Made by a program: the position numbers and the translations under genes. The notes under the pieces are model-generated. The model did not search any database and was not told the DNA's origin. It was given only the letters and a program-made list of their open reading frames with translations. 64,000 bases of DNA from Ancylonema sp. (Eukaryota), in contig JBFLGF010000138.1 in the NCBI GenBank assembly GCA_050230475.1, positions 1 through 64,000 of the forward strand. The letters run 5' to 3'. The first letter of the stretch is position 1. Each line of letters begins with the position of its first letter. This document shows, piece by piece, positions 11,463-63,813 of the stretch.

Positions 11463-11912
11463 GGCTCAGCTACTTGCGACAGCTACTAGCGATTACCACT
11501 TGTTACTTGTTCCCGCGTATCACTTCAAGGCTAGCAGTGTCTCCCCGTCAAAAGAACTGGTACGGCCGTGATACAGAAAGTACTTTCTCGTTCCAGATTC
11601 AAGCCCCCTGGACATGCGCGGTGAATTGCGAGCTCCCCTCTTTGAAAGTTTTTGGGGGGAGTTCGGGGGCAGACGACTGCACTACGCGATCCTTACAGAT
11701 CCGTACAGATGACTGTCAGACTGAACAGAAAAGCGAAATCACGTGTCAGACGATTCCCGACGATGCGGAAAGATTGTCTTACAACCGTTCGATTGACCGT
11801 TCCGATTCTTGCCAAAGCGATGTCGTTGACGTAAAAATTAATGTGCTGCCAACCCAAAGCGGCCCCCTACCCAATCCCTCTTCTAGTCAACCCCTTTCGA
11901 TTCTACAAGCTA

Positions 11913-13292
11913 CAGTGCCCCCTCGATATAAGAACACTCTTTATAAAGACAACCTCGATATAAGGACAGATTTTGTTGGAACTTTGTTAAATGCAATGCA
12001 AAATCGCCCTCGATATAAGCATAACGATACTCTATATAATGACAGATTATTTCAAAAAATTGTTAGAGAATGTCCTCGTACTGTGTATAGAACGTTGTTT
12101 CTTGCATATATTGAAAGTTTGTTAAGCCATATTGAAAGTTGTTGATGACAATCTTTGAATCTATTTCAAATCATGAAAATGTACACGAGGATTTGGATAA
12201 ATCTGGTTTGTTGGAATGTATGAGGATTGTGTATGTTGTTTGCGGTTCACAATTTGGACTACTGTGGTTCTCTTCGTGACAAGTATTGGTTTGTCTTGCC
12301 GTTCAATAATTATCCATGTTGTTCATAATCATTGTGTTTACTCCATGTCCAACAAAATATGCGAGGAATTTGACGCAAAGTACGACCTTGATACTCCCCA
12401 ACTCTCCTCGTAAAGTTGGTTGATTGTTGTTTGTTAGTCGCAATGAATGGGTCTCATTACACACTTGTATAGCTTCCATCACAACACCCACGCTGAGTTG
12501 GATGATGATGCCAAGGCAACTTACTTTAGGCAACAAGTGAACAGCATGTTTGCTTATTTACTTTGCTTCATTCTCGAAGTCCCTCAATACAAAGACACGC
12601 ATTTTAAAATCTAGTGGTGAATGATCTTGTACAGTCTAACGTGCCTTAATTATTTTTTTGTTAATTTCTAACCTCTCTCAATTGAAAAAAAAATCCGGTC
12701 CCGACCTTGGGCGAGTGTAATAATTAATAAACCTCTTAAACGTGATAACTAATTATTTCCCCCTGTCCCGCCTATATGCTGATTAACGTGCTAATTAATA
12801 ATGATCGGAACTCGTACGTATCCGTTTAAAAAATTGTACGAATAAGGAATTCCAAATGTGAGGGAGGGGGGATTGAAGGAAAAAAAAACCCGAAAAAAAA
12901 ACGGGTTGAATAACAAAAACCCGAATTCTGAAGAAAAAAAAAAAAAAAAAAAAAGGTTATTTTTGGGAGTAATGCGGGGTTCAAATATGTTGGGTTGGCT
13001 CATGTTAGAACTACGTCTATATCATTATAAATATGATTATGACTACGTAAAAAATCACGTTTGGGTTGATTCCGACCTTGATATTAGCCCGTTGCACCTC
13101 GTATTCACATAGAAGCTGGTTGCATGTCATTCAGAACCGATTCAGTCTTAGGTAATAACCTGTCTTAATTAACAATATTTTCCGGTCCCGACATTATTAA
13201 TTAAGACAGGTTTTATTGTACAGTGTATAAAGATACCTCGATATAAGGACATTTTTTTGGTTTTTTTTGGTCCTTATATCGAGGGAGCGCTG
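11913..13292. mobile_element. Non-autonomous Tc1/mariner (pogo-like) DNA transposon
   Basis: TIRs cagtgccccctcgatataag / cttatatcgagggagcgctg (2 mismatches), TA on both sides, subterminal repeats of cctcgatataag; no intact transposase. Confidence 0.85.
12632..13218. mobile_element. Nested pogo-like MITE inside 11913-13292
   Basis: Imperfect TIRs cagtctaacgtgccttaatta / taattaagacaggttttattg (16/21), TA on both sides, internal repeated ccggtcccgac and cttaatta motifs. Confidence 0.6.
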
Positions 13293-29734: not shown

Positions 29735-32722
29735 TCATAGAACAATATCAACCACCTTCGGTCCCTCTCCTCGTTCTAGAACGAACTCTTCTTCTTTGTA
29801 CAACCCGTCTACTTCGACCACTACTTTGTACCTCCCAAGAAAACTTTTCGAGGAAAAAGTCCCCCCATTAGAGATTGTTCTTGAAACCCTCCCGCTGCTC
29901 CATTCCTTCACAACCTTCTCCAATCGCTTCCCGGATTCACATAGACACCAATCCCCCGAAACGAGATGCGCATTTTTTCGAAACATACCCCCACCGTCCA
30001 AGCCTCTCCAGAATCCCCAAAGCACCACCCCCCCAACCACCGGGTGTGCAAATGCAACCCTCAACATCATCTCAAAATCGTCGGCCCGTACCATCTCGTC
30101 CTCTGATTCCACATCAAGTTCGGTTAACCAGATCGGCAACCCCGCCTTTGCCAGCGTCTCGAATGCTTCGTATACATGCCTGGGGACCGGATTCGTTATA
30201 TGCGCTTGGATTCCGATACCGTCTACGGGAGCCCCGTTTTTCAGCAACATTTGTACCGATTCCAAGTACTTTTCGGGGCTCGAGTTCACGTCCATCCCGT
30301 CTTCCACGCTGTAGTCGTTCACGAAGAGGAGCGCATTTGGGTCTGTCGTTTTGGCCAATTGGAACATGCGGGTGATGATCCCCGGCCCAAGGCGGTTATT
30401 GAAATATCCTCCATGCAACATCTCGTTGTTCACATCGTAGTGAGCGAAACGACCCTTGTAACGAGACAAGAGGGATACCACTCTATTGTCAATGGCCCCT
30501 GCAATTATCAAGGTTTGGGAAAGGGAGTGTAGAAGGGATGAGGGGATGCTCAAAGTCAGAGGATAACTATGTCTCTAAGTTGTTTGTGGGGGACAGTATT
30601 TGCACACCAATTTATCCTTGAAAGTGGTCCACAAGGGAAAACAAGTTATGAAGGATTCAGGACAAAGTGTTGATTTTTGGTTTTTTGAGGGAGTATAGGG
30701 TGCCGATGGGGAAGGCCATGGATGCATACCTAGTAAAAAAAACGATGCGTTTATTTGAGATACCTTCAAAGAGATGAGATGTTTTTCTTTTGTTTTCATT
30801 AGTTATCTACAGTCCCTTTCCTCCTTCCCCAAGACACATTGTTTTTTATTCTTGTGGGAAAAAAAAAAAAAAAAAAAAAAAAAAAACTTTGACACAAAGA
30901 CAAGGGTCACATTGGAAGCGTCGTAAGTGACGGGATTCATTGCACCATTTGTACGGATTTGCAACAATGTGTACGGATTCGTGGGGAGTTGTACGGCTTT
31001 GTACGAATTCGACCTGCCAAATGTGCGTCCGACAACCCGTGAAGCCACGTAGGCACTTCGTTGTCCCAAAATATGCAGTGGCCGCGGGCGGGAATGCCCT
31101 TCTCCTCGAGCCACGTGAGCATTTCATCGGCCGGTCCGTACTCCGTCTGCCCTCGGGCGCTTTCCATTTGCGCCCATTTTAACTCGTTTTCGAAGACGGC
31201 GAAATTGAAGTGTTCGGCAAAAAAATGACGGTATCGATGGTTGCGGAAGTGGTATTGGTTCATGCACGATCCAATGGCGAATCCCGGAGCCACGTGTGTG
31301 AGAGTCACCTTGGCAGGCGGGAGGGGTGCTCCCGATGATGACGTCACACGAAGGGTGACGTCACGTTTCCTCACCTGCGAGGGGCAATTGTTTCTGACTC
31401 TCAGTCCACCCCAAAATGAATATATTAGTATGAAGGAGTAGTGATCAAGTCTAAAAATATATCGCCATATTGCCATATTGCCCTTTGGTGTGGCGTGCCC
31501 GCATGGTACCCGAACAAAATCATGTACGGATCCCAACCGCGCCCAGCTATCTTCCCCAATCGGAGTAGGAGAGCGGTAGGAGGTGGTACGGATGGGAATG
31601 GTCAGGGTGGTTAGGGTGGTTAGGGTGGTTAGGGTGGGTAATGTTCTTTCGATGCAATGAAGTGTCGATGAAGAGCCTTCATTCTTGACCAAGTGAGATC
31701 TATTACTACCATTTCACAATATTTGTAAAGAATCCGTACATATAGTCATGCGATCTTGTTCATAGGATATGTATCGTCACATTTGTATGATCCAAGTGCG
31801 GACTCGCACGTGTCATTACGTGGATATAAATAAATTGAGATTGATTCGTGTGTACGTATTTGTGATGATGGTGTGCCCATTCCGCCACCGATTCCCAACC
31901 TTGTTGGGAATCGAGGTGGACTCGGAGGTTCACCCGACCTTGTAATAAAAACAAGGAGGCGTGTGAAAGAGCAATTATTATTTCCGTACATTTAAACCTT
32001 TGTAAAGGCACCCTCTCCCTAGGAACAACCTTCATCTCGAAACCCAAATCTGGCAAACAAGACATGCACATCCTCTACATTCTACCCTCCATAAAAACAC
32101 CAAAATGTACCCAACCGAAAAACGTGCATGTAGAGAGGTTTGGCCGCACCTTCTCCGCCATTTCCTTGAGTTCTTCGATAACCGCATCTGGATTCTGAGG
32201 CACTACCCGCACGTCCGCCGCCCAGATATCCACCCCCGCCGGCGGACCCTGAAAGTAAAACTTCACCAACTCCACCCTCGGCTTCTTCTCCAGTCGAAAA
32301 GCGCCGATGCATCGCGCCCAAGCGCCGGATTTCGCCTCAATTGCGCCAATGGGGACCCAGTAGTCGTCTACCGCTAACATCATCTCTACTTTGGTTGGGG
32401 GCGGGGGTGGGAGGGTGGGGGAGCCAATACGAACCCAAGCAGAGACCGCGTACGTGACTCTAGGATCGACACGTGGCAGCATGTGACAGGGCCCTTGCCA
32501 GAATTCGTGGCGGTTGGAGCAGATAATGTACGGAGCTGTGGGGCCCGCTAGGGAGACCGGGTGGGAGGGATGGGGGGGGGAGGAGGGGGAGGTGGGGGGG
32601 CCGTGAGGGGAGCCGGCTGGGGAGGGTGGGAATGCGGTTATGGTTTCGGATCCGGCGTGGCCAAACCAGCCAGCTGTACCGTCGTTGAAAGATCCGCTCC
32701 GGAGCAGATTGGCGGGGGGTGG
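29735..32722 (-). CDS. Endo-1,4-beta-xylanase, N-terminal CBM4_9/CBM22-like module + GH10 domain (copy 1; first coding exon not resolved)
   Basis: Exons 32722-32150, 31374-31014, 30498-29735. YAVSAWVRIG, FYFQGPPAGVDI (CBM); AVFENELKW, RGHCIFWD, YDVNNEMLHG (acid/base Glu), LFVNDY, GIGIQAH, PIWLTELD (nucleophile Glu), VVLWGFW. Confidence 0.92.
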
Positions 32723-35700
32723 CTGCAGGACACGTGGCATGAGGGAGGAAGCGTACGGAATCAGACGATGTTGTGCTGGGATCGCCCTGTGGTGCTGTGG
32801 TTGTGGTACTGTGGCATCCGTACAACATTTGTACGGATGTCACATTGTTGCCTTGTAATACATGAGGGTAGAAAGGTGGAAGATCTCCGCACTGATTCTA
32901 TAAGTAAATACGACGTGAGTGCAGACCGTCAGGGGATGGTCTAACTGACTGAGTCAACGGGGCATGCCACTGAAACGCGACTCAGATCCCATTCTATCGT
33001 CATCATTCCTGCTCACAACTTACCATTCTGGATATTCCGGTTTCCTCCTCCTGACTCGAGTTCGCTTGATCACTTCTGCCTCGGCACGTTTTCGTTTTCG
33101 TCAGCGATCTCCACACTTTTTTAGCTCGATTCAGAGGACCGGGTGAGTCATGCATCTCGCGGAACATGTGCCGAACTTCTCCGACTTCAATTTTTTTTCA
33201 GCGATGCAGCCATTATGCGGTATAAGCGGCAATAATATCCCCGTCCGGGAAGTGCTCTCTTCCTGCGCATGCACTCCATAACCCATTGCCTCTTTCACTA
33301 GAAACGTCGAATTCTCCGATGCAACAGCTAAGCAAAGACGCAGCATCATCGTACGCGCCGAAATGCGCCTTTCGTTCAGCGAGGCACGTAAGATTTTGAG
33401 GGGGAAATGGACGCGACACATCGTACGACCTGTCAGAGGGTTGTCAGCCGAAGTCTGCACCCCTTTCACGCACAAGTCAATGAACTACTCCACGTGGCAC
33501 AACTGAAGGCCGTTTTTAACACAGATGTAACCGCCCGCGGGCGAATCATATCCAGAAAGTCTCCGCTCGCGGGTGAATTCGCCTCCGGCCACCGCCTGGC
33601 GCGCGGGCTGGCGGCTCCATTTCGGAATTTCGTTTTTTGAGAGAGAGAAAATGCATTTTATTAAAGCACGATGGGAACCCTATTTGAGTACAAAAACAAC
33701 AATAATTGACCACCCTATAGGAAGAGAACCCTAAGGAGTTTTAAAAATTAATTTTTAAAACACTTCATGCTCTTCAATGTATTTTTGGGGGTATTCTAGA
33801 AAAGAGCATGTAGTTGATAAAACTATATGAATGATAGTTAAATGATAGTTCGATGCGAAATGATAGTGGGATGTGAAAACCGAAAACACCAATAAAAACT
33901 TACAAACACTTTATAGATCCCCCTTTCGGGCGGGGCTTTCCCGCCTAAATCGGACGCCTCCGGGCGAAGGTTTTGATGGGCATGTACATCTATGGTTTTT
34001 TACACCACCGCGTGATTGGGGACGGTGTACATAAGTTTTTTATTATACTTTTTTTGTTAAAAGAAACTTTATGTTGGAAGAAAACATAGGTTCGAAATTG
34101 TTCCAACAAAATGATCTATATAGATTACATTTTTCGTAACATTCATTGTTGGCAGATGTTATTTATATTCTGAAAAGGAGTTTCTTCTGTTACCTCACGA
34201 AGTAGGAGATGAAACGCCACCGAAGCATGGACAAGATAAAATGCCACCAAACGCATCTAGTCCTTCCTAAATACGATGACAAAAAAGGTCGAGAAATATG
34301 TCGTTGTATAGTTTTATTTGTACACCGTACATAGTACTTATCGAGGAATGTATACGTGTATATGTATTTACGAGATACATATTTTATCGCATTTTAGTAC
34401 CTTTTTTTTTTTTATAGCGACAAAGATCGACACGTTGGGGATCGCATTGTGCATAATTTGTCACATGCGAAAATTACCGTAATTCACTCTTCACGATGAA
34501 AAGTAGGTTCTAGAAATGTGTACTTGTAGGGGCGATCTAAATGTATCGAGGGCACTTTTGCCTAAAAATAAAAATACACAATTATATCATGGGAGTGGAT
34601 AGAAGGTAGGTACACGACTTAAACGTGTTAGCCCTCCGTACTACGGAGGGTTCCTCCGCGTCGCTCGCGCGGTGGCCAGCCATGCACATGTCGGTTGCCA
34701 CCCCCAAACCGCAACTGATTTAGTAACTCCAATATATCAAATTTACCAACCGTGCGGTGGCCAACCGCATGAATGGTGGTGGTCAATCCAAACCGCACAG
34801 ACATATGTGGTGGTCACAACCCTACACTGTAGACGTCCGACAAAGAGAGTTGGCATAATTTTTTCTCGTACTTTCCCATACACAAATACTCTGAATATGA
34901 GGTAAACATTGTAACAATATACATACGCAATTAAACGTCCTATAGTGTGCACAAGTGTTTCATGTGTCCGTGCATGTGTCTATGAGTTTTAACGTTGTTA
35001 TTTGAAATAACAAACATTAACAATTTGAGGTAATTCATTTCTAGCTTGCCCTTGCGTTCTTGACTTCCCCAACCCCCATGTTGCTAAAACTACCCACACG
35101 TACAAACCATTCGGAGTCTTGTCCCCGTGTCAAAACCGAGCGTGTCCGTGTTCGAAGACCGGAGGCAATTGCGTCGGTCACATTTTATCCTGCATAGTCC
35201 TCTAGAAAATTTACTCAAGGGATTGTCATCCTAGCTTGCGCCATTTCCAAACGAAAAGTAGTGACGGAGGAGCATGCAACCCATGGAATCTCGGTTGTCC
35301 AAGCCTGAAGCGCATATCCCAATTTGGACGGGTGTTAGGGTTGTGCCCGGCGCATTTTTTGTGGCATTTGGGGGACTAGGTCTTTTCCCAAGAGTTTGTG
35401 GTCAGATGCAAACGGGTGGGGTTATGCTAACCGTCTCACAACCGCCAACCGGATGGCCCAGCCCCCACGAGCAAAGGATGCGGCTAGATAGGCGGCGATA
35501 CCGGTAGTATGTAAATAAAGGAAAATATTGTGATAGAACAAGTAATCAAACCATACAAAACAAAAGGATTTGACTTCATCCACAAATGCATTCAAACCAT
35601 CAACAACAAGGTGCATGAGCTCCTCAAAACCTCCGGCAGGCGGCGGGCCCATGGTCAACCGTTTCTCATAAAAGCAATAACTCCTTGGGTAAGTTTACAC

Positions 35701-37638: not shown

Positions 37639-40600
37639 ATGAATTCATCCGCTCAACAGGTACGAGCCGTCCGACCCCTATGGACTTTCCAGAAACACAT
37701 GCGATCGCAACCGAGTGGTTGTCTATGTTTCCTCAATCGCCTCTCATCGTGTTTATCGACCCCCGCTCGTCAGTATTTGCATCGAGCTGAGTTTCACAGT
37801 ACATCATGGATGATCGTGAACGGCTATTCGAGTGAGTGAGTAGACACAATTTTGAAATCCCGTTCACAGTCGGGCAAAGCACTGAGCATATTTTCCCTTC
37901 CTTGTTTTCACGTACAGCCACCATGCAACATCCTGGAGAACAGTACCTTCCAATCTGGAGTGTCCAGCTGGCAAGGTACTGGAGGCTGTGAGCAGCTGAC
38001 AGCGGTCCCCGCCTCTCCCTTCGGCTCCCCTCACGGACCCCCGGCCACTCCATCCACCTCCAGAAACTCCTCCTCATACGGTTCTAATTTCTCTGATGAT
38101 CCGAACCGCCCCTCGCTCGCGGGCCCCACAGGTCCTTACATCGTCGTGTCCAACCGCACAGACACGTGGCAAGGCCCGTACCAAATCATCACAGATCGCG
38201 TCCGGTTATTCGTAACCTACGCAGTCACCGCATGGGTCCGAATCGGTCCCCCCAATCAATCCCCAGCCCTCGTATCCAATGTCGACATCGCTCTCAGTGT
38301 GGACGGCGCTTGGATGAATGTCGGAATGGTCGAATGCGATTCGCGAGGCTGGGTCCGGTGCGTGGGCTCATTCCGCCTCGAGAAAAAGGCCTCTTCTGTA
38401 AGGCTGTATCTGCAGGGCCCTCCGCCAGGTGTCGACATCTGGTTGGCCGACATTCGGGCTGTTCCTCAGGATCCAAAGGCTGAGCTGGCGCATCTCAAGC
38501 AGAAAGCGGAACAGGTACTCCACGATTCCCCGTTTCCCCGTATCCGATACTCGGAATAAGTACCGTTGACATGTTCGGGTCCTTACCCGCCCCCGCCCCT
38601 CATCCAGGTTCGCAAGCGCGACATCATCATCAACATCACCTCCGCCTCCTCCCCCTCCACCGCCCCCTCCCCGGTTACAGGCGCACACGTGCGAATGAAA
38701 CAGCGGTCTTCCTCTTTCCCCATAGGCTCCTGCCTCTCCCTGGCGCACATCCGATCCCCCGAATTCCGGCGCTTCTTTTCCGCCCACTTCGATTTCGCCG
38801 TTTTCGAGAACGAACTCAAGTGGCCCAGAATGGAGTGGCACCGCGGGATCCACGATTTCGACGCCGTGGATTCGCTGCTGACGTGGCTGGAGGGGGAGGA
38901 GATCCCCGTGAGGGGCCACTGCATTTTTTGGGACAACGAGTTGCCGCCATGGCTGCCCGGGCTGGAGGATGCCCAGCTCGCGGGTGGGTGGTTGGGGGCG
39001 GGGGGCGGGGGGGGGTGGGGGGGGGGGGAATTGAAGGTCGCTCGCGTTGCCATTTGCAAGGGTGCGATATGGGGGTCTCATATTGTGCTTATACATAAGC
39101 ATGTAGTGCTTATACATAAGCATATAGTGCTTATACAAAAGCATATAGTGCTTATACGTAAGCATATAGTGCTTATACATAAGCATATAGTGCTTATTAT
39201 ACATCTGAGCATTTACTGCTTACATGTAAGCATGTAGTGCTTACAAATAAGCATGTAGTGCTTATAAAATACCGTACTGGCCAGGTTTACCCCACCCTTT
39301 TTTCCAAACAATTTCTTAATTCTTACCCCACTCCCTTACCCTGGCCAAAAATAAACAATTATTGCGACCCCACGGCCTTCCCCCAGCCCATGTTTTTAGC
39401 AATTAATAACAAAAACCCATCAAATTAATACCCCAATTCGGCAACGGGTTTGATTTATTTCTAGACCCTAAATGTAGACAATCACAGCCCAATCACAGCT
39501 CAATCAAGCAAAGCCTGTAATATGTGCCAACCGCGCTTAAAAATTTGACATGCCCCGAGAATCGTGATCCCGACAAAATCCCGATTATTTAGAGCTTGCC
39601 GCCGGTGTTACCCCGCCTGGCATAATTTTAGGATAACATCCCACAAGTCCCTGAAAACGAATTACCAGATTTACTCAATACCCCAAAATCGAAAATCTTG
39701 AATTAATTTCCTTGCCCCACCTTAGCCACAAATAATTAATTGATGGGGTATTAAAGGTGGCCAGTAGGGTACAGTGTTCCCTCGATATAACGACAAAAAA
39801 AAATTCCATGAAAGTGTCGTTATATCGAGGTGTCGTTATACACTGTATAACGACATTTACTACTAGAATCTAAAATATATGTCGTTGTATCGAGGGACTT
39901 TGTGAATAAGCAAATGTGTTTCTTATGAGTTTCCTAGAGTAAGTTGCCTTGGCATGATTCTGAAATTCAGCGTGTGTATTGATATACGAGCTATACAAAT
40001 GCGTCATGATACCAATACATTCGGATGGACAAAATATACCACACAATTTTACGAGGAGAGTTGGGGAGGTATTAAGGTTGTTACAAAGCAACACCGGACA
40101 CGCACATTCTATTGGACCTTATGGAATTCTAAATAAATTTTGAGGTGCCGTTCTAGATTTTTCTCAATTTCCATACATCGTTATCTGCGAGCGATAGCGT
40201 TATATACAATGTATAACGACATTCATCAACAAAATTCTGAAATAATTTGTCATTATATTGAGTGTCGTTATGCTTATATCGAGGGCAATTTCATATTGAT
40301 TTTAAAAAAGTTCCAAAAAACTGTCGCTATACCGAGGTTGTCGTTATATCGAGGGTCGTTATATCGAGGAAGCACTGTAGTGCTCTTGTGTCCCGTACCT
40401 TGTATCCGTTTTGTTGTTGCATGCCAAGCGCGACATTTCGTTGCTTCAATTCGTCGAGTTGAAATGCTTAGAAAGGCTTCATTTGTGTGTGTGTGTCTGT
40501 GTTTTTTTTTTTTTTTTTTTGTGGGATTTTTGGGGATTTTGTGGATGGAGAGGCCGGGAGGGGGGGGGGGGGGGGACACAGCGTCGAGTTCGGCATTGCT

Positions 40601-41558
40601 AATGTCAAATCATAAGAGAGAACATTGTCATTGCCTACTCCTTGGTGCAGAGGCCATCGACAATAGAGTGGTATCCCTCTTGTCTCGTTACAAGGGTCGT
40701 TTCGCTCACTACGATGTGAACAACGAGATGTTGCACGGAGGGTATTTCAATAACCGCCTTGGGCCCGGGGTCATCACCCGCATGTTCCAATTGGCCAAAA
40801 CGACGGACCCAAACGCGCTCCTCTTCATGAACGACTACAACGTGGAAGACGGGAAGGACTGGAGAATAAACCCCCGAAAATACGCGCAGTCGATCCAAGA
40901 GTTACTGAGAAACGGAGCCCCCGTAGACGGGATAGGAGTGCAGGCCCATATAACGAATCCGGTGGTGCCACATGTCTTGGACGCGTTGGATGTGCTGGCA
41001 GAGGTCAAATTGCCGAAGAACCGGGTAGCGGGGAGCGATGCATCCGATAACCGGGTTTGTGGTGACCCGATGTTGTTAAGAGACGGGTTATTAAATGATG
41101 ACGTGTCATCGGGTGACCAACCGCTTCCCGTTTGGTTTACGGAAATGGATGTCGCTTCGTCGGACGAGGGCGTTCGAGCGGACGATTTTGAGATGATGTT
41201 GAGGACCGCGTTTGCACATCCCGTTGTAAAGGGGGTCGTTCTATGGGGGTTCTGGAAGGGCGGTGACAGGTATCCCACTTGTCGAGAAAACGCCGAGTTG
41301 GTGAACGGGGATTGGACGTTGAATGAGGCCGGGAGGAGGTTGGAGGCGATCTTGGAGGAGTGGAGGGGTGGGGAGGCGGTTGGGAAGAGTGATGACGGGG
41401 GACGGTTTGTTGGTAGGGGGTGGTTGGGGAAGTATGATGTGAGCGTGGAATGGAATGGCTACGTGCATCACGAGGTGGTTGACCTTGATAGAGGGGTGGG
41501 GCCAAAGGAAGTTGATATAAATTTATGTGCACTACAGGAGGGGGGGTTGGTAATGTAG
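37639..41558 (+). CDS. Endo-1,4-beta-xylanase, CBM + GH10 (copy 2)
   Basis: Exons 37639-37659 (MNSSAQQ, less certain), 37918-38514, 38608-38983, 40651-41558; same intron positions and motifs as copy 1 (AVFENELKW, RGHCIFWD, YDVNNE, VWFTEMD). Confidence 0.92.
39084..39265. repeat. 21-bp palindromic minisatellite (tagtgcttatacataagcata) in xylanase intron
   Basis: About 8 units, each containing tgcttat..ataagca. Confidence 0.9.
39272..39769. mobile_element. TA-flanked MITE (CCGTA-type ends)
   Basis: Ends ccgtactggccaggtttacccc / ggggtattaaaggtggccagtaggg, TA at 39270-39271 and 39770-39771. Confidence 0.65.
39772..40377. mobile_element. pogo-like MITE
   Basis: TIRs cagtgttccctcgatataacgac / gtcgttatatcgaggaagcactg, TA on both sides, many subterminal gtcgttatatcgagg repeats. 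Confidence 0.9.
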
Positions 41559-42299
41559 ATGATGGCGTAAGTGCCGATATATGGTGTTTCGTTTTTTTTT
41601 TTTTTTTTTTTTTTGGGGGTGTTAATAATACCTGGCGGTTTCATGAGCTCAAGAGCTCCCATCTTTTGAAGCTCAATGTAGTGGGTAGATGCATCGCCAA
41701 TGGTGGGGGGCATGATAAGGGCAATGAGATTATGTAGTGCAAATGTCCGGATTTTTCGTTTAGTGCACATTTGTATAAACACTTGTGGCAAAAATGTAGC
41801 ATCAACTTGGGGGTTAAAAATGATATTGTGTGGATATATAATAAGGCAAAGGCGTGAAACTTGCACAAGGCAAAACCCAACGCCGTAAAGGTCGTGAAAA
41901 ACAATTGATCGATCGATTACTTGTATTGCACTTGTTATCCACTTCCATTATTGATTATGTACTCTTTGACATACATAGCTGTGTCTCCCCCCAAAGATGT
42001 CAATTGCCTAGTCGATCTTAGGTTGTTAAGGGATTCTCCAGACATGATAGGCAGTCACCGAATATGATTTCACGTATATCGTTTAGTAGAGGGACCGGTA
42101 TAGCGCCTAGGTTTGTAACGTCATGTGAGTACTTGCTCATTCATGTAAGCGAATTCCGTACTTAAAACCAGATATTAGACGAGCCCCAATACTTAGCTCG
42201 TGCTCCCTCTAAGAACCAATATCAATTGTGCGTGTGGAGTATCGCAAAGAGAGTCAAGTGTTCTCTTCATGGTATTGGTATCATACAAGAAACATGTGT

Positions 42300-42516
42300 T
42301 GTGAGTGCTTTCTTCTGCCATCGATGCAAGAATAAAGCACAACTCTCTCAGACAACTCTTGAATCGAAAGATCACGTCATTACAAACGTTGACACAACAA
42401 AAGTGCAACTTTGAAGTAGAAAAGTCTGATTACAGAATTCAGCATACAAGCTCAGACCTAGTACAGTCGATTGTTACCTGGTCAAAGAATCTACTGGTAT
42501 TGAAACTATTCGTCAA
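42300..42516 (+). repeat. Left terminal inverted repeat of the copia element
   Basis: Reverse complement of 47312-47528; about 12 differences in ~217 bp by manual alignment, outer 68 bp identical. Confidence 0.95.
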
Positions 42517-45500
42517 CTGCCAATCATATCCAAGCATTCTGCCACATCAACTAGTTCTTATCGACACTTGTGCCAGATGGCCAAGCGTAATCATTGAAAC
42601 AAGGACATCGGCCTGCAGCCGGCCTGCAGCCGGCCTGCCGCCTGCATTTGCTGCTGAATAACGACAAAACTAAAGCTAAATTCCCGGTATTGCTAACGAT
42701 ATAACGAAAACTAACATTTTCCTTGTTGTGTTCTTCCCCCCTCCCTGGGTACTTTTGTATTCCCCCTCCAAAATCGATAACCAAAAACGATATCGATTTT
42801 ACAAACACAAGTCGACATTTATTTTTCATACACAAACCCCACCAGATCACAATTTTTCTGTAACACCTTGGCAGACACTGCTTTGGTCAGCATATCAGCA
42901 GCCTGGTCTTCACTCCGTACAAACTGCAGATTGGATCTTTTTCTTGGTCACCCTCTCTCGAATGGAATGATACTTGATCTCGATGTGTTTGGGGAGCGCT
43001 TGTGTGGAAAAATAGGATTCTCAACAAGTTTCAAGGAACTCTCATTGTCTCCCAGCAATAGCACACTCCCCCCACCAATACCCAACTCTTTTTGCATCTG
43101 GCTCAAATAAATGGCCTCATTTCCCAACAGCACTCAATGCCAAGTACTCACTCTTACAGCTCGAGTGTGTGACTGTATCCAGGAGACCACTTTTCCAACT
43201 CACAGCAGCTCCTCCACTAAGAAAGACATAGCCGGTTCTCCCCTTCCTAGTGTCGACGTCGTCACCATGACTAGCATCTGAGTAGCCGATGACTGGCAAA
43301 TCACCTCCTTTCTTATACATCAGCCCCAAAATTACAGTTCCCTTGAGATATCGCAAAACTCTCTTTACCCCCTCCCAATGCTTGTCCCCTGGCTGCTGAC
43401 TGTATCGACACAAGGAGTTAACAGCAGCTGCCAGATCAGGTCTTGTCTCAGAAGTGAGATACAGCAAACTGCCCATTGCAGACTTGTAGCCCACACCCTC
43501 TATTCCAGCAGATTCAGAAGCAGATTCACAGTTTGCAGAAAATTTTACACCCAGCTCAAGAGGAGCAGCAGAATTGCAATCTTGCATCCCAAACTTGGTG
43601 AGGAGATCTCTGGCATATTTCTTTTGCATCAAAAACACGTGTCCATCAGACTGCCGTCGAATCTCAAGCCCCAGCAAGAATTTTGCTTCCCCCAGTTCTT
43701 TCATGTTATACTTCTTTCCCAATCCTCTTTTCACCCCAAAAATAGTATCCAGCCTGATGCAGAGGAGAAACACATTATCCACATAGAGCGCCAAGTAGAG
43801 TGCTTCTGGCCCTGCTCCCAGAATATAAAGGTCAAAATCTGAAGCGAGACGATGAAACTGCAAGCTTTTCAGCACGTCGTCGATGTGCTGATTCCATCCT
43901 CTCGGTGCCTGCTTGAGGCCATACAAGCACCTGAGTAGTAGCCACACCAAATCTGCTTCACCAAGCCCACACGTGCCGTCAGGGGCCTTCATGTACACCT
44001 CCTCTTCCAGGGGTGCATGGAGAAAAGCTGTCGTTACATCCATCTGATGCATGTGTAGACCCCTGGAAGCTCCCATGGCGACAAGTTGGCGAATGCTCTC
44101 AAAACGAACAGTTGGAGAAAAGGTCTGATCGTAGTCCTCTCCCTCTACTTGACTGAACCCCTTAGCCACAACTCTTGCTTTGTATTTTTCTACAGAACCA
44201 TCTGCATTGAATTTGATTTTGAACACCCACTTTGACTTCACAACTTTCTTCCCCTTCGGCCTTGACACAAGTCGATAGACCTGGTTTTCTTGTAGACTGC
44301 CATTTCTGCAGCCATTGCAGCTTTCCACTCAGCTGCTTGTGGGCTGTTAAGAGCGTCCTCGACAGTCGTTGGTGTCTTTATCTCACTTTCCAAGTTGGCA
44401 ACAAAAGCAGCAACAAATTTGTTGGGATGCATTCCTCTGTTCTCCCTTGCAGATCGACGAATAGGCTCTGGATCATCGATAGAAGTTTCTGAAAGTTGTC
44501 GTTCACGCCAAGTGGATTAAAAGGAGTAGCATCATCTGGGTACCATTCTGGACCATCTTCCAGATGATCTTCGTCTGCATCGCCTCCACTAGAATTGCTG
44601 ACAAGTTCTGGAAGATCTGCACTCTGAGGAAGAGGAGATGATCTCGGAAGCTGTGGCAATTTTCCGACAGCATCAGGGATCTCTTCATCGACAGAATTTG
44701 GATCGCCATAGGCAGGTTGCCCACCTCCAGAAATACCCCCTCCGAGACCAACACTACCCCCCTCCTGCTCCTTGATCAGCTGCATCCAGATCTAGCCATG
44801 ACATTTTTGTTTGTGCAACTGGCTCATGCACTCTTGCCTTCTTGCCAATTTTTTGTCCCCTCCACCAGCTTTGCTTGACAGATTCATCGAAGTCTACATG
44901 ACCAGTGCCAACGTTGTGTACTTTGTTCGTTGCAAGATCCCAGACTCGGTACTCGGTAGCAAGGACTGTCGGGATTCCATCCAACTAACACACCAAGCCA
45001 AGCCAGCGCACTCATTTTCCCAGCCCGATCTTATTTCTCCAGTCGCACATAAACTTTGCAGCCGAATGATCGAAGATGATCAACCTTTGGAACTTCTCCT
45101 GACCACATCTCCTCTGGAGTTTTTGGAAGTCCGCTGACTTGACATCGATTTCTGAGGTATGAAGCTAAGGAGATTGCTTCTGCCCACAGACGGAAGTTGC
45201 ATGTGCAAAAACATAAGCCCTCTTGCAACGTACGATTCATGCGTTCTGTGATTGCATTGCCTTGAGAAGTGTTTGGCGGAGTTGTCTCATGTCTGATGCC
45301 TCTGTTTTTGAGCCACTTCTGTAGATCACCATCGATAAACTCTCCTCCTCGATCTGATCTCAGATTCACAGGTTTCCAAGCTTGTCTTTCCCAGATTGTG
45401 ATCCATTGCTTTAGACGAGGAGCTGCATCATCTTTGCTGCGAAGTATTTCCACCCAGGATTTTCGACTGTGTTCATCGACGAGCACCATGTTGTACACCA

Positions 45501-47311
45501 TGTTGTACACTCCTCCCCCTATAACGGCCTTGCCAAGTCCACCGACACTCTTCCTAGGCAGACTTGTTCTCCTGCACCACCTTCTCGTCGAGGATGAGGT
45601 TTGTCGTGTGCCTTCCCCAGCTTGCACCCTTCACAATTTTGCAGAACTCCTGAGATGCCTCCTTCCAGTCCTCGTACAAAGATGTTGTCGTGCCACATTT
45701 TTGAGCACTCTCTCATTTGCCATGCCCAAGTCTCGTGTGCAGGAGGTCGATTTCGACTGCAGCTACAACAGCTTCCCCTTCAGTAAGGTTGCTGATGTCG
45801 AACCGGTGTGCAGATGAGAGTTTTTCGACGTGTCGATGTTTCTTGCAGAGTGCAGACTTGTTGTCTTGATTTGCTGTAAATTGGAATGATGCCACCAGCT
45901 TTTCCACTGCAAGTGTAAGACCACCCTGCTTCTCTGGCTTTCTGACCGCTGAACAAATTAATGCGCATCCTAGGAATGTACAAACATTTCTTGAGTGTTA
46001 CTTCTCCACACTCTCCCTCGGTATTCAGCTCAATTGTTCCCCACTGCTTCACTCGCACACTTCCGACCAGATGATGCATGATGACCTCGTGTGGAGTCTT
46101 CGATGATTTTGAAAAGATTTTTTATGCCCACAAGAATGGTGACTGGAACCATCGTCGAAAAGGAAATCTTTCTCTGCATCATCATCATCTGCAACATTTC
46201 CTTCACAAATTTTGATTTCAGCCAGCAATGATAGCTTCTCCATGACCACAGCTCTCCTCCTCATCGATTTCATTCGCCAACGAAAGCTATTTTTCTCCCA
46301 GTGCGTACCCCCTTTCTCTGCATTCGTGGACCTTCGTTTTTCTTGTCGAAACATGTTAATTCCACATGACCAATGGCTCCACAATATTATATCTGCATTC
46401 TTCGTTTTTCTTGGAGCAGTCTCTGCTATAGTGACTTGTCTCTCCACAAGTATAGGAGGAATGTCCTCCACTTGATCCACTGCCTCCACCTCTGCCTCCA
46501 CGACCACCTATGATTCCACGATTATCTGCTGAATACCCCCTGAATGTACCCCTGCCTCCACGATTGTCGATACCACCACCTCTGCCTTGGCTTGAAAATT
46601 TTTGTTGCGCTGACCACTTAGCATAGTTTGCCTCTACAACTAGTGCCTCAGCATCTTTGCATCCTTTTTCTTTCTTGTCGTCCAGCTCATCCATTCTTGC
46701 CCCCAGATCCAGCTGATCCCAGGTGCCTCTTTCTGTCCATAGTAAAGCTTCTTCAACATGCCGTATTTTGTTCTTGACATGCCCCAGCAAACAATGCCAT
46801 CACCTTATCTTCTGCGCTGACTGGAAATTTTTGATGTACACACTCTCTGATGATCGACAGAGAAGTATTCTTGATTTCTCTGACTGGCATCTTTTCATCG
46901 ATCTTGAAAGAGAGTTCAGCTTTTCTTTTGCAATCTGTCGAAGTTCTGGGAGACACCTTGTCATACTCCTCTGTCCTCTGTCAGATAGTCCCGCATCGCC
47001 TTTGGATCTCGTTCAAATTGTTCAAGTGATGTAGCGATGTCGTCACTAACAAATTGCATGAGTAGCATGACTGCCTTCTTTGATCTTTTAAGGAAGCTTT
47101 TGACATCAAGTGTATACTGCTCCATTTTTGCTTCATTTGTTGGCCAGTGTTCATCATCATATCTGGCTGTAACCTCAGTTGGAATAGTCTTTGTTCCCAA
47201 ATCTCAAGGCACTCAGCATCATCAAGAGTAGCTGAGGCCTTAGATCTCCATGCTTGAAAGGTAACTTTATCTCCATCCAGAATGCAGTACCGTGCTGAGT
47301 GCTTTCTTCAA

Positions 47312-47528
47312 TTGACGAAGTAGTTTCGATACCGGCAGATTCTTTGACCAGACAACAATCGACTGTACTAGGTCTGAGCTTGCATGCTGAATTCCTTAAT
47401 CAGACTTTCTACTTCAAACTTGCACTTTTGTTGTGTCAACGTTTGTAATGACGTGATCTGTCGATTCAAGAGTTGTCTGAGAGAGTTGTGCTTTATTCTT
47501 GCATCGATGGCAGAAGAAAGCACTCACA
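47312..47528 (-). repeat. Right (5') terminal inverted repeat of the copia element
   Basis: Reverse complement of 42300-42516. Confidence 0.95.
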
Positions 47529-47639
47529 TGTGTGTCTCCACATTTGAAGTGAAAATCATGGAACCCCACACATCAGTTTCGTAAATTAAATATTAAAGAA
47601 AAAGAAATGAATGAACTTAATCATTGCAAACCATATTTG

Positions 47640-47900
47640 GGTGCGCACAACTAAAATCGCGCACATGTTTGGGACACGTGCACGATGCGCACATGTTCGG
47701 AACATGTGCGCTCAACCCCGCGCACATGTGAGTGCCCACCCAGGAAAAAATATCTTTAAAAATCGCGTGTACTGTTGCTAACCACTATGAGCGGCGGCTT
47801 TTTACTTAGATTTTTTTATTTTTTGGGGCTTTTGCGAGGAGGTGCGCGATGCGCACATGTTCCGAATATGTGCGCCAAACCCACACACATGTGCGCGCTC
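47640..47900. repeat. Cluster of gcgcacatgt motifs, probable DNA-transposon subterminal region
   Basis: gatgcgcacatgttc(g/c)gaa(c/t)atgtgcgc occurs at ~47684 and ~47848 with further partial copies. Confidence 0.55.
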
Positions 47901-49182
47901 ATTTGTGTCAAGAAAAAATGGTTGCGTGTCTCGGCATCTCAAACCCACGGAGCGACATGTCAGAAGTTTTGATTAAAAACCGTGGACTCGTCGACTAATA
48001 TGACACAATACTTCACATGTGGGATAATTCAGCTAGGAGCCTCGTCTCCGAGAAACCACGGCTCAAGGACATGCCAAACGTATTTTGGACCAACACACTA
48101 GCAATACACACGTGTGGACTAAGGAATCACGTGCACACATGCTACCACTCGTGTCGAATTGTACGGTGTCATACACAAGTCTGGGCTTACATGGAAACGT
48201 ACGAAATTATGTATAAAAAAAAAGTGATCGGTTTGACTCATTTCAGCTGGGTAATACTATTTTAAGGCAATTCATTCTCGGTTTGCTGGTTCTTTCTTGG
48301 GTTTTTCTTCCCGACCTACACCTCGAGTCGGGTATCACTCAAGTGTCCACAAATCACATTCGACATACTCATACATTAAAGGCCATGCACAACAAAGGGA
48401 CTTCTCAACCTTCCGATATTCTTCTTAAACATTGCTTCACTACAGCTTGGTGTTTCTCCGATGGTAAAGAAACGCAGTCTTGAATCGCAATGGCAATATG
48501 AATCGTGCTCAAAGCCGACCCAGAATTCACCTGCAAGATTCCGAAACCCCAAATCCCAAAACCGCAAGCTATCAGTCATGCATCTCTTCCTTGTATCAAA
48601 CAAGAGTCGTCAGGTGCAAACACGGTTGTGAAATGTTACATTTACGATTACGCAAGTAAAGTTTGCGTACAATGTAACAAAAACAGAATCGAAATCGAGA
48701 TGACGTCATACTTACAACCGTAAGAGACCCTTTCTATGGAGAGCACAAAAGAAAACATTTGTTCCAAATCCGGGCTTGTAGGGAGCCCAGATCCGTCGGG
48801 GCTTGAAGCCAGATTCGTGAATGCTACGTTTACGATTCCCACAAACCGTAAAAGTACGGTTTAGGTTTAGGTTTAGGTACGCTGTAAGTACGGAGTCCAA
48901 AGCGTGAGTACGTCATGTTCACTACGTAAGGGGTGTGAACGTCACATGTACGATTCCGTTTTACTGTGAAGTACGACATGCTTTGAGATGGGATTGAGAT
49001 GTTGATTGAGATGTCGAGATCTTGTCGTGGTACCAGCCCCAACCCAACCAGGGTTGGGAAGCCAGGTGCAGGGACGGAGTGGAACCCATCCCCACCTACA
49101 CGGCTGATGGGGGTTTGCATTTAACCAAAAAGTCTCAACGGTTTTGGGTTGGTCAATTCGGTTAGTCCCCCCCTAGTCCTTG

Positions 49183-52944: not shown

Positions 52945-54143
52945 ACCGTGTGATGGGCGATGGACAGTTCTGGATGCGTTGTCGGATTTCGATTGGACCA
53001 CAAGCCCGAATCGGTGAAACTCTACTTCCAGGGTCCGCAAGCGGAGGTCGATATTTGGGCGGCAGATGTACGAATAGTGCCTCAGGACACGGTGGCGGTT
53101 ATCAATGAACTGAAGGAAACGGCGGAGAAGGTGAGAGCCAACGATTGCATCACGTGGCTAGAACGATACAATGAAACATGTCTAAATCAATTACTTGTCT
53201 TATCTAACATGGAATTCTCCGATTTCGGGTTTCCACCCAATTTACAAGTCAAAAAGTGACTTGTACATTGATAACATGTCTAAATTGGTTTTTTTTTCCG
53301 GTCTCGACGGTATCAATTTAGAGAGGTTTAAACTCAACTTGTTTTTCAGGTGAGGAAGCGTGACATCATCATCCAGCTGACGTCATCGTCAGGATCTCCC
53401 TTGTCGCCGGCCAAGGTGACTCTAACCCACGTGGCTCCGAGTTTCGCCAGTGGGTCCTCCATGAACAAAAACGGGTTTGATGACAAGAAATATCGCGACT
53501 TTTTTGCCGACCACTTCAATTGGGCGCGAATAGAGAAAGGCGGAGGTTTTATAGGGGATTACTTTCAGGTGGATGATATGCTGACATGGCTACAGGCGAA
53601 GGGGATTCCCGTTCGGGGGAGCTTCACAGTGAGGAAGGAAGTGTTTTGGATCGACGAGGAGTTGTCCGACTTACTATTGGCAGGTCGAATCCGTACAAAT
53701 CCGCACTCGTCCTTAAACATCCGTACAACCTCATAATTTGGCAAGTCACACTTTGCATCCCCTAATGCAAATGTCACCTTGCTTCACATTATGGGCGAGC
53801 GGGGGCTTGTTTACCCCCTCTGTCTGTATTTTTAACGTCATACCGAAGTGAATTTGATATCATTAATCTCATACACCTTGAATATCGTTCAAATGCCTTG
53901 ATTTCTCATTGAAAGCCACCAATTTACTTCAAAACGAAAGGTAGTGACTTTGTACTTCACTTCAATTTGACGCTCTTTCCCACCCTACCCTTCCCGTGTT
54001 TAGATGCTGTCGACAAGCGAGTTGTGGATCTCTTTTCTTGTTACAAGGGTCGTTTCGCTCACTACGATGTGAACAACGAGATGTTGCACGGAGGGTTCTT
54101 TGCGAACCACCTCGGGCCGGGGGTCATCACCCGCATGTTCCAG
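52945..54143 (+). pseudogene. GH10 xylanase copy 3, 5' part
   Basis: Truncated, frameshifted CBM exon to 53130 (KLYFQGPQAEVDIW), exon 53350-53683 lacking AVFENELK and with RGHCIFW changed to RGSFTV, exon 54004-54143 (YKGRFAHYDVNNEMLHG...ITRMFQ) broken off. Confidence 0.85.
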
Positions 54144-62270: not shown

Positions 62271-63120
62271 GATGTACGTCAACGAATTCCCCTATCTCAA
62301 AGTATGTCTTGTCCACAAATGTTTCAAAAAGTTCCCAAGTGTCCTTATTGTTACGAATGATTTCCAGTGCTATCTTAGTAGTTCCACGGTATTTCCGATA
62401 AGTCCCCAAGTGTTCCCATCAAACTAGAAATATCACACGATGTCTAATAGACCATCCATACAAAGAATCGATTTTTAAGCTTTATCGATATGATTGAGCG
62501 AGTGCCCAGCTAGTCTTTGTAAGACACAAACTAGCATAAATGCCGCATTCACTCGATCTAACACCATATGGGTTGTCCGTCATGCTCGATGGAAAAGATT
62601 GAAAAATGCAAATGAACAAATGAGTATTCACAATGCAGATAAGCGTAACGCATCAATACAATTTTTTTTTAAAGAAAAATGAGTACCCGAAATCCTTCGG
62701 TGAGTAACACATACATTTTGAGCGCAAAATGTCTTCACCATTCAGGCTTTCATTATCCACCATCGGAAAGTGAAGGTTACAAGTGACGCACACTTATACG
62801 TTAATATCAGATACTAGCCTTACAACAACATACCACTCAACATATTTGCTCAATACTCAGCCGGACAAAGTGGCATCATTAAACTTCCACTCCTTACGCT
62901 TTGAAAACGTTAGAATTGTAAAATGTACCGTATGTTGGTTTGATACAATAGGTAAAAAAAATCAGACGTGTGAGTCACAATATTGCGCAATCTAATTCGT
63001 TTTGAAGTGAAATTATTATTCGCAATCGAGATTTGCATCACCCTCCCGTCCGAAATTTGATATACCCTTCGATATGGCGATCGGAGTTTCGCGATCGCCC
63101 TTGTTATGGAGTCTCAGACA

Positions 63121-63813
63121 GAATTGACAGACCCAAACGCGCTACTCTTCGTGAACGACTACGCTTTAAAAGACAACCATGATGTAGAATCGAGTCCCGA
63201 AACGTACCTAGATTCTGTACATGAGTTGCTCGACACTGGTGCGCCTGTTGGCGGCATTGGAATTCAAGCGCACCCAATCACCCCGGTAGCCTGGCATGTG
63301 TACAATGTTTTTCAAACGTTATCAAAAGCGGGACTCCCGATATGGTTAACTCAATTAGTCGTGGAGTCGGAGGACGAGGGGTTGCATGCCGACCACTTGG
63401 AGATGATGTTAAGGGTCGCGTTCGCACATCCCGCCGTTGAAGGGGTAGTGTTGAAGAGTGTTTGCACATGGGAGGACCGTGGGGGCATAGGTGGGAGAAA
63501 CGCGCAGCTCGTCACGGGGGATTGGTCTCCTACTGAATCCGGAAAACGGTTGGAGGAGATTGTGAAGGAGTGGAGCAGCGGGAGGGTTTTGGGGACAATA
63601 CCCGGCCGGGGATCATTCTCGTCGAGGGGCTTTTTGGGGAGGTATAGAGTGGCGGTTGAAGTAGACGGGATGTACAAGGAAGAGGATTTTGTTTTGGAGA
63701 GAGGAGAAGGACCAAAAGTGGTCGATATCGTGATTGGAAGCGCAAAGGTTCAAGACTTTGCAGCCGTCCTTGAGCGAAGTGTTGCACAAGATTTTTTTGG
63801 TATCAAGAAGTAG
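63121..63813 (+). pseudogene. GH10 xylanase copy 3, 3' part
   Basis: Resumes at TDPNALLFVNDY, where the 5' part stopped (paralogs read MFQLAKTTDPNALL); nucleophile WLTE changed to WLTQ, LWGFW changed to LKSVC. Confidence 0.88.

Follow-up and report, generated by a model that had tools for sequence, protein, structure and literature searches.

A Ty1/copia copy with an inverted front end in Ancylonema sp., probably derived from folded strong-stop DNA

Background

In the reverse transcription of elements with long terminal repeats (LTRs), minus-strand strong-stop DNA spans the stretch from the primer site to the RNA's 5' terminus (Lee et al. 2020, PMC7197481). In HIV-1 assays this DNA is known to prime itself as a side reaction (PMC6088434), and aberrant cDNAs can integrate with target duplications (Sabot and Schulman 2007, PMC1950507). 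The chain of events leading from an LTR element to a DNA transposon is called unclear by Bao et al. (2010, PMC2836005), who suggest two chance neighbours. All these papers except PMC1950507, as well as PMC3852365, PMC3601003 and PMC7192593 below, are cited from selected sections. We describe here a Ty1/copia retrotransposon copy at positions 42300-47528 (minus strand) of a stretch of 64,000 nucleotides from Ancylonema sp. (assembly GCA_050230475.1, contig JBFLGF010000138.1, positions 1 to 64,000), the whole of which we call the window. An earlier note, made from the letters alone, had read it as a copia element bounded by inverted terminal repeats instead of LTRs, integrated as such and implying either a new copia replication mode or an intermediate between LTR retroelements and DNA transposons with terminal inverted repeats. 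We find it more plausible that this copy is a single broken member of an ordinary family with direct LTRs, and that its inverted front arose from an error of reverse transcription before insertion, a cDNA with two U5 ends having been integrated. Among the titles listed in the literature searched (most subscription papers and Repbase lay outside it) none describes a copia element with inverted ends or an integrated two-U5 product.

Results

The inverted ends and the target-site duplication

Public contigs from sequencing runs were compared with the window in two ways: those of X1-X4 (of 12 runs) with positions 41300-48500, and those of X1, X2, X3 and X7 with positions 47250-47360. X1 and X2 are one sample, which may be the source of the window; X3 and X4 come from a second study and X7 from a third. 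What is said below of joints and of loose ends of contigs refers to the 15 of 245 joints and the 18 of 28 loose-end rows that were listed. The two ends of the element are made up as follows.

42295..42299, plus strand: 5-bp target-site duplication, left copy (TGTGT), by sequence match
42300..42716, minus strand: complete 3' LTR, 417 nt, TGTTAG..CTCACA; contigs span 42344-42696 (X3) and 42300-42696 (X4) as a single piece
42515..42520, minus strand: initiator-like motif GCAGTT (5/6 to TCAKTY), where the inverted arm stops; putative transcription start
42736..42746, minus strand: polypurine tract, with an X3 loose end at 42737
47294..47296, minus strand: last 3 nt of the primer-binding site, from loose ends at 47296 in X1, X2 and X7 and from the joint letters
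47296..47309, minus strand: direct 14-nt remnant of the LTR 3' end, an exact match to 42302-42315
47309..47528, plus strand: inverted copy of the last 220 nt of the LTR (LTR positions 198-417), in place of the 5' LTR
47529..47533, plus strand: 5-bp target-site duplication, right copy (TGTGT), by sequence match

Aligned as reverse complements, the segments 42300-42519 and 47309-47528 agree at 208 of 219 bases (blastn E 2e-92); the differences are 11 substitutions, of which 8 are transitions and 3 transversions, and 2 indels of one base each. The inverted ends that had been reported as 217 bp long with about 12 differences are therefore real in substance, as arms of 220 nt. Their description as standing "instead of LTRs" is wrong at the 3' end, where 42716-42300 is a whole LTR behind a polypurine run: the supposed left inverted repeat is the last 220 nt (42519-42300) of this LTR. 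The earlier statement that no LTR copy in direct orientation exists also overlooks the exact 14-nt direct copy of the LTR end at 47296-47309. Read from its outside, the 5' side consists of the duplication, the last 220 LTR nucleotides in inverted form, 14 nt of direct LTR end, 3 nt of primer site and then gag; 13 nt, namely the final LTR bases and the remainder of the primer-binding site, are missing when compared to the family contigs.

The outer ends of the element read TGTGAG..CTCACA. Both are exact LTR 3' (U5) termini, flush with the 5-bp duplication, for which the chance is about 0.001-0.002. The presence of TGTGT on both sides, already pointed out in the earlier note, was confirmed with this same chance: the match is of exactly 5 bp (lengths 4, 6, 7 and 8 fail), two random 5-mers of the window agree with a probability of 0.0012, and the frequency of TGTGT in the window is 0.0015. 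These figures bear on a reading in which two head-to-head members of the family were fused by a deletion, LTR end to U5 end, the 5-bp match being a matter of chance; this is the route proposed by Bao et al. for the terminal inverted repeats of Ginger (PMC2836005). In a high-copy family neighbours are common, the alleles of the arm may derive from another subfamily, and a genome-wide scan selects lucky matches. On the other hand, the match has a probability of about 0.001-0.002 per case, and independent insertions leave unmatched flanks (PMC1950507), so that we hold such a fusion to be very unlikely. No joint from 42299 to 47534, which would mark an empty site, occurs among the joints listed, and no paralogous empty site lies within the window.

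The left insertion junction is carried by contigs of X1 and X2, which cross from the unique flank into the LTR end and cover 27 nt of it (41627-42326, 1 difference). The unique flanks match X1 contigs with 0-1 difference across 280-700 nt. The inverted arm, or its junction, might still be an artefact of assembly or polishing in a high-copy repeat: the family is deep in the best-matching runs, which is a setting prone to mis-joins, and the inner junction is known from the assembly alone. A mis-join is nevertheless not expected to yield a matching 5-bp duplication, nor an ordered series of arm, LTR-end remnant and primer-site remnant, and the runs that match the flanks and carry the left junction may be the source of the window itself. 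We consider an artefact improbable. No contig of X1, X2, X3 or X7 covers 47298-47305 or bridges the inner junction; as contigs drop rare variants, this gap counts neither way.

The divergence between the arms is 0.052 (Kimura two-parameter distance), which we do not take as an age since the two ends may derive from two templates. The differences are unevenly placed, 11 of the 13 lying within the inner 100 nt (permutation p 0.019, or 0.056 if adjacent changes are merged). Folding of the arm together with the remnant recovered the 14-bp stem with a z of only -1.96, and adds no support. The last 40 nt of the LTR hold an imperfect palindrome of 36 nt (83%), at 42305-42340 and 47488-47523, a possible hairpin adjoining the primer site. 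Short tandem duplications are present in the LTR as GC-rich repeats (42600-42645), and also in the integrase region, where one is 13 nt long (45486-45511).

The family to which this copy belongs

In a contig of 1429 nt from X4, the sequence runs from 42696 to 42300, continues with 10 further letters and goes on from 47296 to 46290, that is, from a direct LTR to gag. The same joint was found, among those listed, in X1 (3 contigs), X2 (4) and X3 (1). The letters at the joint complete TGGTATCAGAGC in the family contigs, which in plant copia elements is the site where the tRNA-Met primer binds (PMC3852365). For loose ends behind 47294-47297, all 7 of the rows listed (27 records from four runs) open with the primer site's complement; from there 6 of them enter the LTR end, and the X3 row enters other sequence. 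Likewise, the 6 of 6 rows listed before 47309-47312 (33 records) extend into the upstream half of the LTR, while one X1 row listed at 47285 (2 records) departs into unrelated sequence.

At the other end of the element, an X3 loose end has the family LTR start, TGTTAG, directly behind the polypurine run near 42737, so that in the family the LTR start adjoins 42737. Compared with this X3 contig, our copy has about 20 extra purine-rich nucleotides (42717-42736) between the polypurine tract and the LTR start, as well as a short deletion just inside the LTR near 42717-42736. Both features may belong to a variant subfamily, or the aberrant synthesis may have left them as a second scar.

Contig depth, which is a rough measure, is higher for the LTR than for the internal part, 97 versus 26-49 in X3 and 12.7 versus 7-10 in X4; a ratio of about two is expected where each element has two LTRs. 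Next to its shallow flanks the element stands out as a deep repeat (for example 1025 versus about 10 for one X2 contig). The family is also present in X7, a glacier metagenome, as a contig of 97 nt with 0 differences over 47 letters.

As assembled from contigs rather than read from any single full-length copy, the family is an ordinary copia family, with LTR, tRNA-Met primer site, gag-pol, polypurine tract and a second LTR in direct orientation. It has what is expected of Ty1/copia: the order gag, protease, integrase, reverse transcriptase (RT) and RNase H with a copia-type RT, direct TG..CA LTRs, a primer site and a polypurine tract. The present copy has neither two direct LTRs nor a whole primer site, as an intact Ty1/copia element would. 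A new replication mode or family is thus unsupported: direct LTR, primer-binding site and gag follow one another in the family contigs, an arrangement that the earlier note had itself named as speaking against its proposal. That note had also named an independent MITE as an alternative. This fails, together with any other independent transposon with terminal inverted repeats, because the repeat is the family's own LTR sequence, extending into the upstream half in the 6 of 6 rows listed, and because an RT is present.

The closest RT homologues have 59% identity over 98% of the query, and up to 72% over part of it. No relative of the RT was found in the viral contig set, and exact LTR patterns gave 0 matches in the viral contig and genome contig sets. 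The 48 metagenome copia-like loci of at least 4 kb (of 69) contained 0 inverted long-range repeats; the metagenome loci have at most 43% identity, which makes them too distant to represent the family; 12 of the 48 had long-range direct repeats, several being merely overlaps of contig ends. Two of these distant loci with direct repeats are L068 (1718-2264 and 6160-6611, 419 nt, 93%) and L003 (6013-6173 and 9520-9681, 168 nt, 83%).

Coding regions of the copy

The interior of the element, on the minus strand, contains the following regions.

46359..47203, minus strand: frameshifted pieces of the gag region, including a zinc knuckle (zf-CCHC, E 0.0014, below cut-off); pieces of open reading frames
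45783..46121, minus strand: protease-region beta-barrel (Pol_BBD), E 1.6e-7
44757..45630, minus strand: integrase core and SH3-like domain, in pieces; rve 8e-11, SH3_retrovirus
42846..44328, minus strand: region of the copia reverse transcriptase and RNase H, with a break near 43120; RVT_2 E 2e-70, tblastn with homologue P0001

Along the minus strand the Pfam matches come in the order zf-CCHC (E 0.0014, below the Pfam cut-off), Pol_BBD (1.6e-7), rve (8e-11), SH3_retrovirus and RVT_2 (2e-70). The RNase H region, 43208-42846, matches P0001 in tblastn and has no Pfam match. The copia order of gag, protease, integrase, RT and RNase H, as first read from the open reading frames, is borne out by Pfam and tblastn, with the zinc knuckle as its weak member, and so is the decayed state of the copy, whose frames are interrupted by stops and frameshifts in several places. 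The copy contains many further small indels relative to the family contigs.

Several known kinds of elements were considered. A DIRS element was rejected because the six-frame Pfam scan gives rve and no recombinase, because the family junctions are direct, and because the 14-nt complement is the end of the LTR in its usual position. Penelope-like elements combine a GIY-YIG endonuclease with a Penelope RT; this reading was rejected since the same scan finds no endonuclease. No transposase was found in the six frames either, which removes a reading as a transposase-bearing DNA transposon. Autointegration was set aside as the interior is colinear.

A further reading is that of a low-copy subfamily with inverted ends, which would propagate either by DIRS-like end repair, for which the 14-nt internal complement would serve, or by cut-and-paste through the integrase of the family. 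The copy does have inverted TG..CA ends with a duplication and a 14-nt piece that is the complement of the outer ends and resembles an internal complementary region in miniature, and contig tables lose rare forms. Against this, the family junctions are of direct LTR and primer site among the joints and rows listed, the 14-nt piece sits at the normal position of the LTR end, neither a tyrosine recombinase nor a transposase was found in six frames, and the copy is without the 5' promoter half or the primer site and has broken coding frames. We think it extremely unlikely that such a subfamily is propagating.

Discussion

Origin of the inverted front

The upstream half of the LTR is absent from the 5' side, while the LTR end is there twice, once inverted and once direct. 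This excludes a plain inversion of the whole LTR in place and indicates a copying event. Strong-stop DNA starts at the primer site; hence it begins at the LTR end and reads antisense, like the arm, and a fold-back would yield a direct copy such as the 14-nt remnant. Both internal breaks fall at landmarks of reverse transcription, the primer site and the initiator-like motif. Initiator motifs of the form TCAKTY are present in some LTRs (PMC3601003), and the inner end of the arm coincides with the sole CA[GT]T[CT] in the LTR. No TATA-like motif was found 25-35 nt upstream of 42519.

The course of events that we propose is the following. One minus-strand strong-stop DNA would make the normal first jump and build the minus strand. 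A second one, the 220-nt arm, would fold back and copy its own first 14-16 nt; it would next be transferred to the minus strand's 3' end, which lies at the primer site, with the loss of 13 nt, and take the place of the normal plus-strand strong-stop DNA. The product would have a U5 end on each side and would be acceptable to the integrase, giving TG..CA ends and a 5-bp duplication. The two strong-stop DNAs may stem from two packaged RNAs. Over a stretch of 52 letters in which arm and 3' LTR differ at 6, a deep X2 contig departs from the arm at 1, and an X3 contig agrees with the 3' LTR at some of the sites that differ in the arm; together with the clustering of the differences, the X2 match is a weak hint of two templates. 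Of the earlier proposal, one part therefore stands as likely, namely that the unit was integrated as such, given its exact LTR termini flush with the 5-bp duplication; the new mode or family is not supported.

It is also conceivable that an element with direct LTRs was inserted normally and that its 5' LTR was later rewritten by a template switch during replication or repair, in addition to a small deletion at the primer site. The switch would have entered at the short inverted termini, copied 220 nt backwards and returned 16 nt before the LTR end. This accounts for the intact duplication without any new integration chemistry; TGT.AGT is common to the LTR start and the inverted LTR end, and the copy has many other small indels. 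Yet it requires two switches and a separate deletion, which would have to land on the primer site and the initiator-like motif, and an arm taken from the copy's own LTR should have private alleles, whereas most of its alleles match a deep family contig. We regard this rewriting after insertion as rather unlikely.

Several points weigh against the fold-back of strong-stop DNA. That the arm corresponds to R plus U5 is our own assignment, with the transcription start a candidate only. The initiator-like motif was chosen after the break was known, and the LTR has 7 sites with one mismatch to TCAKTY (5% of LTR positions), 2 of them with CA intact; for these reasons the motif gives modest support. 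The fold-back join has just 1 nt of microhomology. In the sections of PMC6088434 cited here, self-primed products are called dead ends and were undetected in endogenous HIV-1 reactions. TGT.AGT stands both at the LTR start and in the inverted LTR end, so that a template switch in the inserted element could equally have left the duplication flush. Both the inner junction and the outer one on the right are known from the assembly alone. Several differences between the arms are at deamination-prone sites, and the shared alleles may be recurrent changes or due to polishing. Lastly, there is a single copy (n=1).

Significance

The family is ordinary. The copy matters as the likely genomic fossil of a side reaction of reverse transcription that we found described only in vitro. 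If the fold-back of strong-stop DNA is true, a two-U5 cDNA can be completed and integrated in a cell, and this would be a one-step route to inverted termini and a target duplication for an integrase gene. The copy thereby bears on the possible origin of Ginger-type ends. As it has neither a 5' U3 promoter nor a primer site, we predict that it cannot retrotranspose again and is a dead end. Structure-based LTR finders would presumably miss such copies. Because the family is of high copy number the idea can be tested: in other copies made by fold-back, the arms are expected to stop at the transcription start. One may go further and imagine that fold-back is a recurrent route to integrase elements with inverted ends, and that a small subfamily here was remobilised by cut-and-paste or end repair, as a living intermediate between LTR elements and Ginger; we hold this to be highly improbable.

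Genomic surroundings

The make-up of the window is eukaryotic, and its pieces of subtilase, CBM4/9 and GH10 genes suggest a host of the plant lineage. To the right of the insertion, at 47566-48047, lies a separate multi-copy repeat, rich in GCGCACATGT palindromes and with an internal duplication of 61 nt. The window contains at least 4 diverged paralogues resembling CBM4/9 and GH10 xylanases, in both orientations and with 70-88% DNA identity (11900-12640, 29735-32839, 37840-41558, 52970-54142 and 63061-63813); the copia element stands about 750 bp after one GH10 frame. Pieces of a subtilase gene (inhibitor I9, peptidase S8, fn3) occupy 6388-10635 on the minus strand.

Comparison with known systems

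The element resembles Ty1/copia (Pseudoviridae) elements with a tRNA-Met primer site in its domain order, RVT_2, TG..CA LTR, polypurine tract and 5-bp duplication, and in having TGGTATCAGAGC in the family contigs. It departs from them in that the 5' end of this copy is formed by the distal 220 nt of the LTR in inverted orientation and most of the primer site is lost.

With the complex insertions by template switch described by Sabot and Schulman (2007, PMC1950507) it shares an aberrant product of reverse transcription integrated as a unit and recognised by its duplication; theirs are dimers with three direct LTRs, possibly active, while this copy has two outward U5 ends and is predicted dead. 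The self-primed minus-strand strong-stop DNA of HIV-1 (PMC6088434) also folds back and copies its own 5' part. There it is an in-vitro dead end primed by the cTAR hairpin, whereas here the microhomology is of 1 nt and the product would have been extended and integrated. The inversion circles made by autointegration (Lee et al. 2020, PMC7197481) are, like our proposed intermediate, inverted copia cDNA products formed inside the particle, but they are circular with an internal inversion between two whole LTRs, unlike our colinear interior with a doubled and inverted LTR end.

DIRS-1 (PMC7192593) likewise has an RT and terminal repeats that are inverted and non-identical, and its interior holds a segment complementary to them; it has a tyrosine recombinase and its inverted ends are family-wide, in contrast to the DDE integrase, copia RT and direct LTRs of our family. 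Finally, Ginger1 and Ginger2 (Bao et al. 2010, PMC2836005) have inverted ends of 40-270 bp starting with TG around an LTR-type integrase, with a short duplication, as has this copy. They are RT-less, multi-copy and have a Gypsy-type integrase, while we have here one copia copy, with an RT and a broken integrase.

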